Of a stretch of 64,000 nucleotides of DNA, positions 38,753 to 40,788 are shown in pieces (position 1 is the first letter of the stretch; every line of letters begins with the position of its first letter). The stretch comes from Escherichia coli (GTDB taxonomy: Bacteria > Pseudomonadota > Gammaproteobacteria > Enterobacterales > Enterobacteriaceae), in the NCBI RefSeq assembly GCF_003334355.1, contig NZ_QOWP01000007.1, one strand, 5' to 3'. The notes beneath the pieces were generated by a model, which was not told the origin of the DNA, searched no databases, and saw nothing but the letters and a program-made list of their open reading frames with translations. The position numbers and the translations under genes were made by a program.

Positions 38753-39058
38753 ATGGCAACTTTGTTACAACTTCATTTTGCTTTTAATGGCCCATTTGGC
38801 GACGCAATGGCTGAGCAGCTTAAACCGCTTGCTGAGTCGATTAATCAGGAACCTGGTTTTCTGTGGAAGGTATGGACAGAAAGTGAAAAGAACCACGAAG
38901 CCGGTGGGATCTATCTTTTTACTGATGAAAAAAGCGCCCTTGCCTATCTGGAAAAACATACTGCCCGACTTAAAAATCTCGGCGTTGAGGAAGTTGTCGC
39001 CAAAGTTTTCGATGTCAATGAGCCACTGAGTCAAATCAATCAGGCAAAACTCGCCTGA
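38753..39058 (+). CDS. ydhR: YdhR, small putative monooxygenase (101 aa)
   Basis: Track ORF; terminator hairpin downstream. Confidence 0.85.
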
Positions 39059-39070
39059 CAGAATTTAATC

Positions 39071-39092
39071 AAGGGCGGTTAGCGCCCTTTTC
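39071..39092 (+). terminator. Putative terminator after ydhR
   Basis: AAGGGCG/CGCCCTT stem followed by TTTT. Confidence 0.55.
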
Positions 39093-39183
39093 ATCCCTGT
39101 CTGAAATTTCTCAAATTCTAAAAATCTCAACCAAACTTATCTGATAACACTAAATTCGAAAGAATGCGTACAGGTAAGTAACA

Positions 39184-40788
39184 ATGAAAAAAATTGCTAT
39201 TGTGGGTGCCGGGCCTACGGGGATCTACACCTTATTCTCGCTTCTACAGCAACAAACTCCACTTTCTATTTCTATCTTCGAGCAGGCTGACGAGGCCGGT
39301 GTCGGGATGCCATACAGTGATGAGGAAAACTCAAAAATGATGCTGGCAAATATTGCCAGTATTGAAATACCGCCGATTAATTGTACGTATCTCGAATGGC
39401 TACAAAAGCAAGAAGCCAGCCATCTCCAGCGTTATGGCGTTAAAAAAGAAACCTTGCACGATCGTCAGTTTTTACCGCGAATTCTGCTGGGCGAATATTT
39501 CCGCGATCAATTTTTACGATTAGTAGACCAGGCACGAAAGCAAAAATTTGCAGTGGCTGTTTATGAATCATGCCAGGTTACCGATCTGCAAATTACAAAT
39601 GCTGGCGTCATGCTCGCTACAAATCAGGGTTTACCCAGAGAGACGTTTGATTTAGCGGTGATTGCCACGGGTCACGTCTGGCCTGATGAAGAAGAAGCAA
39701 CCCGAACGTATTTTCCCAGCCCGTGGTCAGGCCTGATGGAAGCAAAGGTCGATGCGTGTAACGTGGGTATTATGGGAACATCCTTGAGCGGACTGGATGC
39801 GGCAATGGCAGTGGCTATTCAGCATGGTTCGTTCATTGAAGATGATAAACAACACGTCGTTTTTCACCGCGATAACGCAAGTGAAAAGCTAAATATCACG
39901 TTGATGTCGCGCACGGGTATTTTACCCGAAGCCGATTTCTATTGCCCTATTCCCTACGAGCCCTTACACATTGTCACCGATCAGGCATTAAATGCTGAGA
40001 TTCAAAAAGGCGAAGAGGGCCTTTTGGATCGGGTATTTAGATTGATAGTAGAGGAAATCAAGTTTGCTGATCCAGACTGGAGCCAACGCATAGCCTTAGA
40101 GAGCCTGAATGTCGATTCCTTTGCTCAAGCCTGGTTTGCCGAGCGCAAACAACGCGACCCATTTGACTGGGCAGAAAAAAATCTCCAGGAAGTCGAACGC
40201 AATAAACGAGAAAAACATACTGTTCCCTGGCGTTATGTCATTCTGCGCCTGCATGAAGCCGTACAGGAAATTGTTCCACATCTGAATGAACACGACCATA
40301 AACGGTTCAGTAAAGGCCTTGCCCGGGTTTTTATCGATAATTATGCGGCAATCCCTTCAGAGTCTATTCGTCGGCTGCTGGCCTTACGTGAAGCGGGGAT
40401 CATTCATATTCTCGCCCTCGGTGAAGACTACGAAATGGAAATTAATGAGTCGCGCACCGTCCTGAAAACGGAAGACAACAGCTACTCGTTTGACGTTTTT
40501 ATTGATGCCCGCGGACAGCGTCCACTTAAAGTGAAAGATATTCCTTTCCCTGGGCTACGCGAGCAATTACAGAAAACAGGGGATGAAATCCCTGATGTTG
40601 GCGAAGATTATACGTTACAGCAACCCGAAGATATTCGTGGACGCGTAGCGTTCGGCGCGTTGCCCTGGTTGATGCACGACCAGCCTTTCGTTCAGGGACT
40701 TACGGCATGTGCAGAAATTGGTGAGGCGATGGCTCGGGCGGTCGTAAAACCTGCATCCCGTGCACGTCGGCGTCTTTCGTTTGATTAA
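39184..40788 (+). CDS. ydhS: FAD/NAD(P)-binding protein YdhS (534 aa)
   Basis: Track ORF; N-terminal Rossmann dinucleotide motif IAIVGAGPTGIY. Confidence 0.88.
   Translation: MKKIAIVGAGPTGIYTLFSLLQQQTPLSISIFEQADEAGVGMPYSDEENSKMMLANIASIEIPPINCTYLEWLQKQEASHLQRYGVKKETLHDRQFLPRILLGEYFRDQFLRLVDQARKQKFAVAVYESCQVTDLQITNAGVMLATNQGLPRETFDLAVIATGHVWPDEEEATRTYFPSPWSGLMEAKVDACNVGIMGTSLSGLDAAMAVAIQHGSFIEDDKQHVVFHRDNASEKLNITLMSRTGILPEADFYCPIPYEPLHIVTDQALNAEIQKGEEGLLDRVFRLIVEEIKFADPDWSQRIALESLNVDSFAQAWFAERKQRDPFDWAEKNLQEVERNKREKHTVPWRYVILRLHEAVQEIVPHLNEHDHKRFSKGLARVFIDNYAAIPSESIRRLLALREAGIIHILALGEDYEMEINESRTVLKTEDNSYSFDVFIDARGQRPLKVKDIPFPGLREQLQKTGDEIPDVGEDYTLQQPEDIRGRVAFGALPWLMHDQPFVQGLTACAEIGEAMARAVVKPASRARRRLSFD

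Follow-up and report, generated by a model that had tools for sequence, protein, structure and literature searches.

The closest described relatives of the Escherichia coli protein YdhS, judged by predicted fold, are single-component flavin monooxygenases. Foremost among them is FzmM/CreE from Streptomyces sp. V2 (L-aspartate N-hydroxylase, nitrosuccinate synthase; Protein Data Bank (PDB) entries 8CP2 and 8CP5). In this monomeric class B enzyme two dinucleotide domains enclose a wedge-like helical substrate domain, and catalysis takes the classical class B course via a hydroperoxyflavin, an Asn being placed above flavin C4a (PMC10404684). Here we describe the ydhR-ydhS locus on a 64,000-nucleotide stretch of E. 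coli DNA (contig NZ_QOWP01000007.1 of assembly GCF_003334355.1), referred to below as the window. The initial annotation had proposed that the short YdhR and the longer YdhS resemble a two-component oxygenase/oxidoreductase arrangement. The evidence favors a different explanation, to which we assign a probability of roughly 0.6: ydhR and ydhS would be independent single-gene units that are adjacent by chance in Escherichia, and YdhS would be a self-sufficient class B monooxygenase with its own promoter.

Both genes are already annotated core genes of E. coli. A 2.6-kb query around the locus is at least 80% covered in 5401 of 5426 complete E. coli genomes, and the stretch is 100% identical to ATCC 8739-like genomes. 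What is new is the assignment of the predicted YdhS fold to the FzmM-like N-hydroxylases, a putative mobile promoter of the sigma-S type, and the hints provided by neighboring genes. For annotation the consequence is that ydhR and ydhS are to be regarded neither as an operon nor as an enzyme pair, and the placement of YdhS among the single-component N-hydroxylase-like monooxygenases, with a probably RpoS-type promoter of its own, makes its function directly testable. A substrate, if found, would define the function of a family that comprises 1019 clusters at 50% identity (E <= 0.001).

Conservation of ydhR and ydhS as neighbors

A scan of one genome per species with a profile built from a 17-sequence alignment yielded 80 further ydhS loci, 88 in total, all from taxa other than that of the window, and YdhR homologues were sought by tblastn within 6 kb of ydhS in every one of them. 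Only three of the 88 loci have such a homologue: those of E. fergusonii (L008), of a divergent E. coli (L015), and of a Citrobacter metagenome-assembled genome (MAG; L033), where it lies 2.8 kb from ydhS. YdhS orthologues at about 63-71% identity are common across the Enterobacterales, and in the loci examined from Yersinia, Klebsiella, Leminorella, Citrobacter and Enterobacter the gene is found in unrelated neighborhoods with no PF08803 gene, the family to which YdhR belongs, nearby. Among the first orthologue loci examined, the order mdtK-ydhR-ydhS was repeated only by E. fergusonii. Seven loci (L016, L017, L026, L028, L032, L038 and L062) have mdtK, the two tRNA-Val genes and ydhS with no ydhR, and in another (L044) mdtK is directly upstream of ydhS, ydhR again being absent. 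The genera with a syntenic ydhS locus that lacks ydhR include Enterobacter, Lelliottia, Huaxiibacter and Shimwellia.

The two genes also occur far apart on one contig. In Citrobacter amalonaticus S646 (PQMB01000002.1) ydhR is located at about 127.3 kb (L089, 5001-5306) and ydhS at about 157.9 kb (L006, 6001-7608), which places them about 30 kb from each other. Type VI secretion (T6SS) genes follow ydhR (TssF, TssG, SciN and VasL) and precede ydhS (VipA, VipB, VasE and DotU); an entire T6SS cluster appears to have been inserted between the two. In Raoultella, Neisseria animaloris and Photobacterium, ydhR homologues are solitary, with no ydhS nearby. Conserved co-occurrence and co-transcription, as one would expect of the genes for a two-component system, were not found for ydhR and ydhS.

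These observations bear most directly on the alternative that YdhR, as a small oxygenase, and YdhS, as its NAD(P)H:flavin oxidoreductase, form a two-component system whose parts are expressed and used together. The genes are on the same strand and 125 bp apart in E. coli, their adjacency is retained in E. fergusonii and in the divergent E. coli, and the weak T tail of the hairpin between them makes read-through conceivable. Both also have a low GC content at third codon positions (GC3; 39% for ydhR and 45% for ydhS, compared to 50-57% for mdtK, ydhQ, ydhT, ydhU and ydhX). However, an enzyme pair is difficult to reconcile with the rarity of the adjacency, with syntenic loci devoid of ydhR, with the T6SS cluster that splits the two genes in C. 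amalonaticus and with ydhR genes that stand alone elsewhere. Between the genes lie the hairpin and a conserved promoter that appears to be ydhS's own (PMC5493296). The predicted YdhS fold is that of a single-polypeptide, single-component class B enzyme and not of a flavin reductase, and YdhR, a 101-aa alpha+beta barrel of the cofactor-independent type, is neither luciferase-like nor acyl-CoA-dehydrogenase-like; the combination of a small flavin reductase with an oxygenase of either kind is not found here. Neither the YdhS nor the YdhR fold belongs to the two-component classes C-F.

The unequal divergence of the two genes adds a further argument against a pair. Between E. coli and E. fergusonii (window 35510-40788 against L008, 3744-7611) identity is 93% for MdtK and 88% for YdhR, compared to 69% for YdhS. 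The two-component arrangement is already largely refuted by these comparative data, and we consider it highly improbable. As far as the sequence evidence goes, ydhR and ydhS are regulated independently and share no functional link, an outcome that the initial annotation itself had named as incompatible with its proposal. The genes thus appear to be neighbors by accident and not the two halves of one enzyme; YdhR, which has no demonstrated link to YdhS, would act separately.

Identities of YdhS between genera range from 64 to 76% whatever the taxonomic distance (matrix of 14 orthologues), and the alphaproteobacterial sequences, from Brucella/Ochrobactrum (L024 and L025), a Hyphomicrobiales MAG (L034) and Paracoccus alkanivorans (L039), are 63-66% identical to that of E. 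coli. This pattern suggests that ydhS spread horizontally, either by replacement of alleles or by transfer, at a locus that stayed fixed. The low GC3 of ydhR and ydhS, beside a pair of tRNA-Val genes, is consistent with a foreign origin. Two further observations concern the distribution of the protein. The alphaproteobacterial copies are nearly as close to E. coli YdhS as other enterobacterial ones are. In Shigella, YdhS entries are often short (404-435, 385 and 366 aa), with 496 members in the 404-aa 'partial' cluster of S. sonnei, which suggests that ydhS has been pseudogenised in this group.

Hairpin and promoter-like element in the ydhR-ydhS spacer

The open reading frames of ydhR and ydhS fill exactly the span of 38753-40788 assigned to them in the initial annotation, and the picture drawn there, with ydhR 5' of ydhS on the same strand and followed by a terminator-like hairpin of its own, is borne out by the list of reading frames and by RNA folding (Table 1). 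ydhR has a ribosome-binding site, AGGAG, 8 nt 5' of its ATG. The hairpin starts 13 nt past the ydhR stop codon and has a G+C-rich stem of 7 bp (AAGGGCG/CGCCCTT) and the loop GTTAG, after which follows TTCATCC; a 61-nt stretch that includes it folds at -17 kcal/mol (z = -2.4 against shuffles). At the equivalent place E. fergusonii (GGGGGA..UCCCCC, then UUUU) and the divergent E. coli have a hairpin of other sequence. That the position is kept while the sequence differs is as expected of a functional terminator, and transcription of ydhR would end at this hairpin. A consensus promoter and terminator scan called neither the hairpin nor a sigma-70 promoter in the spacer; the hairpin was missed because its T run is short, and both the hairpin and the putative ydhS promoter are non-canonical. 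An Rfam search of the spacer found no riboswitch or leader.

Many genera share a conserved block, TTTTCnACCACACTTAT, with TTGGCnCAAT 17 nt ahead of the -10; it precedes the ydhS start codon by 43-128 nt and stands behind unrelated upstream genes. The block is present at 14 or more of its 17 positions in 26 of 46 enterobacterial loci, compared to none of 1740 shuffled upstream regions, and it has one occurrence in the 64-kb window (39124-39140; expected, 0.12). It can be read as a promoter with a -35-like hexamer, a spacer of 17-18 nt and a -10 of the form C-C/T-A-C-A-C-T. The -10 consensus of RpoS-type promoters is CTAcacT, from -13 to -7 (PMC3533512); most orthologues match it at six of seven positions (CCACACT), some genera perfectly (CTACACT, 7/7), and E. 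coli at five (CCAAACT). In the window the -35-like TTCTCA (39108-39113) is separated by an 18-nt spacer from this sigma-S-type -10 (39131-39137), which sits within the block ATCTCAACCAAACTTAT. Transcription is predicted to start near 39143-39145, giving a 5' untranslated region of about 40 nt.

A site in the ydhR>ydhS spacer was also detected in vitro by genomic SELEX (systematic evolution of ligands by exponential enrichment) with the RpoS holoenzyme, and was assigned to ydhS (PMC5493296). Because the block is conserved whatever lies upstream, and because the SELEX site falls in the same spacer, ydhS probably has its own promoter, and this promoter is probably sigma-S-dependent. The element seems to belong to ydhS itself and not to the Escherichia locus: ydhS would be transcribed from within the 125-bp spacer, by a promoter that travels with the gene across the Enterobacterales. 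Given the sigma-S-type -10, ydhS most likely serves in stationary phase or in the general stress response.

Table 1. Positions of ydhR, ydhS and associated features in the window.
Feature	Position	Strand	Basis
ydhR coding sequence	38753..39058	+	List of open reading frames; ATG, 101 aa
ydhS coding sequence	39184..40788	+	List of open reading frames; ATG, 534 aa
valV and valW, two tRNA-Val(GAC)	38488-38564, 38569-38645 (38488..38645)	+	ARAGORN, Rfam tRNA matches
Terminator-like hairpin 3' of ydhR	39071..39089	+	RNA fold
ydhS promoter-like element	39108..39140	+	Conserved block upstream of ydhS, RpoS-type -10
YdhS FAD motif codons, G8-A-G-P-T-G13 (GxGxxG)	39205..39222	+	Sequence reading
YdhS linker codons, D156-LAV-IATGH164	39649..39675	+	Regular-expression match, D(x)3-[LIF]-ATG-[HY]
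YdhS degenerate NAD(P)H-motif codons, G198-T-S-L-S-G203	39775..39792	+	Family-profile alignment to flavin-containing monooxygenases

The tRNA-Val pair forms the upstream boundary of the ydhR unit and is given as context only. A 62-aa open reading frame on the minus strand (38455-38643) is the antisense of these two genes; the same pseudo-reading frame recurs in seven other loci, where we used it as a marker of the tRNA pair. The Rfam family RF02194 (HPnc0260 bacterial antisense RNA) has a full-length match on the minus strand at 38607-38769 (110 bits, gathering threshold 59, E = 6e-16). It is antisense to valW in its 3' half, to the spacer between valW and ydhR, and to both the start codon and the ribosome-binding site of ydhR. 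The score of the match derives in part from the antisense-tRNA segment, a partial match on valV alone reaching 36.6 bits. A Pectobacterium small RNA found by RNA-seq was likewise assigned to the RF02194 family (PMC4710047). At the other end of the locus, 11 bp separate the 3' end of ydhS (stop ending at 40788) from that of the convergent ydhT (reading frame ending at 40800), and the 3' ends of the two as transcribed must therefore overlap; the ydhS-ydhT pair has been counted among RNA-seq-derived excludons (PMC12288877).

Predicted fold and chemistry of YdhS

YdhS matches PF13454 (NAD_binding_9, HpyO/CreE-like) with E = 1.4e-31; the match spans residues 5-164 and takes in positions 1-154 of the 155 in the model, and a Pfam scan of the protein gave no match beyond this region. 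It also matches the NCBIfam equivalog NF007381 (1115 bits, cut-off 783), which is uninformative on function. The protein was expected to have about 530 residues and an N-terminal Rossmann motif; it has 534, and IAIVGAGPTGIY (residues 4-15) contains the GxGxxG of the FAD site (GAGPTG, residues 8-13). A second dinucleotide motif, GTSLSG (198-203), falls in a second beta-alpha-beta domain of the AlphaFold2 (AF2) model, and the family profile aligns this region (vgilGsSLsAiDa) with the NADPH motif of solved bacterial and plant flavin-containing monooxygenases (FMOs; GSSYSAED and GSSASAVD). S242 and R243, at the end of the strand after GTSLSG, are candidate ligands of the 2'-phosphate. The pattern D(x)3-[LIF]-ATG-[HY] is the typical linker motif of N-hydroxylating and flavin-containing monooxygenases, and YdhS has DLAVIATGH at residues 156-164. 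In an alignment of 75 family sequences G8, G10, N56, R99, G103, G163, G198, L201, G215, P248, P391, A400, G444 and P501 are invariant, H164 is conserved in 95%, and S200 and S242 are conserved in at least 95%.

The AF2 model (pLDDT 95.4, pTM 0.93) has three parts: residues of about 1-190, joined by the C-terminus, make up the FAD domain, those of about 190-260 and 405-450 the NAD(P)H domain, and those of about 266-403 a helical insert. In a Foldseek search of the PDB, FzmM-type structures ranked first (8CP5/8CP2; E = 3e-23, TM 0.73), followed by the ornithine hydroxylases KtzI, SidA and PvdA (E about 1e-13), and FzmM alone aligned the helical insert; the overall fold is nearest to known class B enzymes. 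The structural neighbors of YdhS in the AFDB are all uncharacterised and are named after the 'urate hydroxylase HpyO/Asp monooxygenase CreE-like FAD/NAD(P)-binding domain'. Searched against the PDB by sequence alone, YdhS gave Rossmann-motif matches at E of about 0.1 and no solved relative, while the 75-sequence profile matched solved FMOs (E = 5e-11) and 8CP2 (E = 9e-7). A profile of residues 1-112 matched FMOs, amine oxidases and adrenodoxin reductase, 8CP2 not being among the matches listed. Asn56, 12 residues past Tyr44 (in GMPY), resembles in its spacing FzmM Asn62, which is 11 residues past Trp51 (PMC10404684). An NCBIfam scan of ten homologues at 26-59% identity found no named family except the YdhS model, and no PADLOC defence-system model matches YdhR or YdhS.

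We predict YdhS, with good confidence, to be a class B flavin monooxygenase of the single-component type that most resembles the N-hydroxylating group. The annotation of YdhS as an FAD/NAD(P)-binding protein agrees with the PF13454 match and the two predicted dinucleotide domains, and the suggested check by profile and structure-based annotation led, through PF13454, NF007381 and Foldseek, to the FzmM-type class B fold. That no substrate was established also still holds, as papers continue to class YdhS as a protein of unknown function (PMC7481392, PMC11228462).

The superfamily of proteins with two dinucleotide domains also includes NAD(P)H-dependent reductases and oxidases, and YdhS could be a non-oxygenating member, such as a reductase of low-molecular-weight disulfides or of quinones, or an NAD(P)H oxidase that produces H2O2. 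We regard this as unlikely. The five cysteines of YdhS are scattered and include no CxxC or other redox-active pair. The top matches in both structure searches are oxygenases, which alone cover the helical domain, and the profile-to-PDB matches are FMOs. The invariant Asn56, DxxxIATGH and GxSxSA are motifs of FMOs and N-hydroxylases, and a conserved helical chamber of 140 residues would be hard to explain in a simple oxidase.

If YdhS is a class B monooxygenase of the self-sufficient kind, NAD(P)H, probably NADPH, would reduce the FAD that the protein binds tightly. Reaction of the reduced flavin with O2 would give a C4a-hydroperoxyflavin, kept in place beneath bound NADP+ and the invariant Asn56, and from it a single oxygen atom would pass to a small substrate in the chamber of the helical insert; without substrate the enzyme would leak H2O2. 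Because the closest folds all belong to N-hydroxylases or heteroatom oxygenases, YdhS most likely oxygenates a small polar metabolite on N (or S).

The genes that surround ydhS provide leads from a few lineages. No constant operon partner was found across the 88 loci, and in the window the neighbors are ydhR and ydhT. The recurrent neighbors that we identified (in at least 4 of the 88 loci) are mdtK, a carbonic anhydrase, an MBL-fold protein, a LysR regulator, an SDR, a catalase and a MOSC protein; some smaller recurrent clusters were left unidentified. Catalase HPII is a classic stationary-phase enzyme. In four loci (Brucella, the Hyphomicrobiales MAG, Paracoccus and a gammaproteobacterial MAG) its gene lies directly upstream of ydhS, co-oriented and 113-138 bp away, and in three more it lies within 5 kb. 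Among the four alphaproteobacterial loci, ydhS is directly 3' of the catalase gene in three, and the short Brucella tritici contig (L024) shows none; here katE-ydhS looks like a pair that moves horizontally. MOSC enzymes reduce N-hydroxylated compounds. A MOSC_N+MOSC protein of about 250 aa adjoins the YdhS homologue, here of 40% identity, in 17 loci of Rhizobiaceae, and in an 18th (L066) it lies about 1.6 kb downstream; relative to the ydhS homologue the gene is co-directional in four cases and convergent in 14 (Rhizobium/Agrobacterium group, L066-L088, at about 7660-8500). A YdeI-type stress OB-fold protein and an SDR also recur beside ydhS. The catalase and MOSC neighbors hint at a role in stress physiology that involves oxidative or N-oxide chemistry, and together with the sigma-S-type promoter they fit a stress-phase oxygenase that would carry out N-O chemistry and leak H2O2.

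Several observations weigh against the reading of YdhS as an independently expressed class B monooxygenase. The T tail of the ydhR hairpin is poor, and transcription may in part continue from ydhR into ydhS. Of the copies of the ydhS promoter, that of E. coli is the most degenerate (5/7), the RpoS SELEX signal at the ydhR>ydhS spacer is weak (intensity 3.8; PMC5493296), and our literature search gave no report that ydhS depends on rpoS in vivo. In the protein, the second dinucleotide motif is degenerate (GTSLSG, GxSxxG), and Asn56 is matched to FzmM Asn62 by its spacing from GMPY/Trp only, as is the mapping of the active-site positions Asn56, Tyr44 and Thr12 onto FzmM in general. A profile of residues 228-534 shows no similarity to FzmM or any other solved protein, and the substrate is therefore not transferable. 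Flavin binding, NAD(P)H oxidation and oxygenation by YdhS are properties that we infer from motifs and model. Finally, only a few lineages, related to each other, have the catalase and MOSC genes beside ydhS, and in many cases these genes are on the opposite strand.

Reported phenotypes are few. Deletion of ydhS reduces the susceptibility to killing by the Agrobacterium T6SS, an effect that was complemented (PMC7012810); AZT represses ydhS 16-fold (PMC11228462); and a Klebsiella deletion mutant has no lactic-acid phenotype (PMC11205318). YdhS is cleaved in vitro by Prc (PMC7481392), but since YdhS is predicted to be cytoplasmic, this cleavage is probably not physiological.

A bolder proposal, which we consider very doubtful, is that YdhS founds a sigma-S stress clade of class B monooxygenases that, in cells that do not grow, N-hydroxylates a small endogenous metabolite, for example an amino acid, a polyamine or a nucleobase, with molybdoenzymes of the MOSC type as the opposing N-hydroxy reductases and catalase clearing the H2O2 that uncoupling releases. 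The E. coli MOSC relatives YcbX and YiiM detoxify N-hydroxylated bases. If the proposal were true, E. coli would possess a pathway of endogenous N-oxygenation, and YdhS might be the source of the N-hydroxylated bases that these proteins detoxify.

Comparison with known enzymes

YdhR matches PF08803 (E = 4e-42) and the equivalog NF008333, and it is identical to the PDB chains 2ASY, 1WD6 and 2HIQ, which makes it a member of the YdhR family with its dimeric ferredoxin-like barrel. Like the ABM monooxygenases of the ActVA-Orf6/YgiN type, it is a small dimeric alpha+beta barrel; it differs from them in having a family of its own, and the Pfam ABM family gave no significant match (E = 0.14). Many barrels of this fold are not oxygenases. 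An ActVA-Orf6/YgiN-like function was proposed from the fold alone by Revington et al. 2005, as cited in PMC3935937, and the description of YdhR as a small putative monooxygenase corresponds to the 'putative mono-oxygenase' that this citation derives from the fold. The papers that we found on YdhR report no activity and cite only the fold-based proposal. Under uranyl stress YdhR accumulates together with WrbA (PMC3935937). YdhR may be an oxygenase that acts without a cofactor on quinol or aromatic compounds.

Among enzymes with FAD and NADPH domains, the FMOs (Tmm, mFMO and S-allyl-cysteine S-oxygenase) are the best sequence-profile matches of YdhS in the PDB, with E values from 5e-11 to 1e-7. 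The matches span the GxGxxG region, the ATG linker and a GSSxSA NADPH motif that resembles GTSLSG of YdhS. The siderophore N-hydroxylases (SidA, PvdA, KtzI, DesB, NbtG and lysine N6-monooxygenase) belong to PF13434, whereas YdhS belongs to PF13454, and have a small substrate domain in place of the helical insert of about 140 residues. Identity is 12-14%, and YdhS, unlike enzymes of the SidA/PvdA type, has no siderophore-synthesis neighbors.

Xanthomonas has an FAD-dependent urate hydroxylase, HpyO, that works with FAD and NAD(P)H (PMC4562309), and it raises the alternative that YdhS hydroxylates carbon in a purine-like or aromatic compound. The comparison is one of domain names: HpyO falls in the same named domain family as YdhS, which is itself in PF13454, and the AFDB neighbors carry the HpyO/CreE-like domain name. 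However, uricolysis genes are not found near ydhS, no HIU hydrolase, OHCU decarboxylase or allantoinase was seen among the recurrent neighbors in the 88 loci, and the family members that we scanned against NCBIfam match no named model but that of YdhS. A C-hydroxylase of this kind is distinctly unlikely.

FzmM/CreE remains the top structural match, and YdhS might in principle be its orthologue, converting L-aspartate to nitrosuccinate or 3-nitropropionate. We find this hardly credible. The two proteins are only 17-18% identical, YdhS being about 65 residues shorter. In FzmM an arginine cluster and entry chamber with Arg13, 266, 276, 409, 412, 416 and 577 and Asn413 bind L-aspartate (PMC10404684). 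The half of YdhS that corresponds to most of this arginine-rich cluster (Arg266, 276, 409, 412, 416 and Asn413) has no profile match to 8CP2; conserved arginines of YdhS are Arg321, Arg374 and Arg99, and at the position of Arg13, an ungapped N-terminal register would put Thr12 of YdhS. A nitro, diazo or hydrazide natural-product cluster with nitrosuccinate lyase or a similar partner was not found among the recurrent identified neighbors in the 88 loci. The architecture is shared, since in the YdhS model, too, a helical domain sits as a wedge between those for FAD and NADP. The genetic settings differ: whereas the FzmM gene is part of a natural-product cluster, ydhS is a solitary housekeeping or stress gene of enterobacteria.

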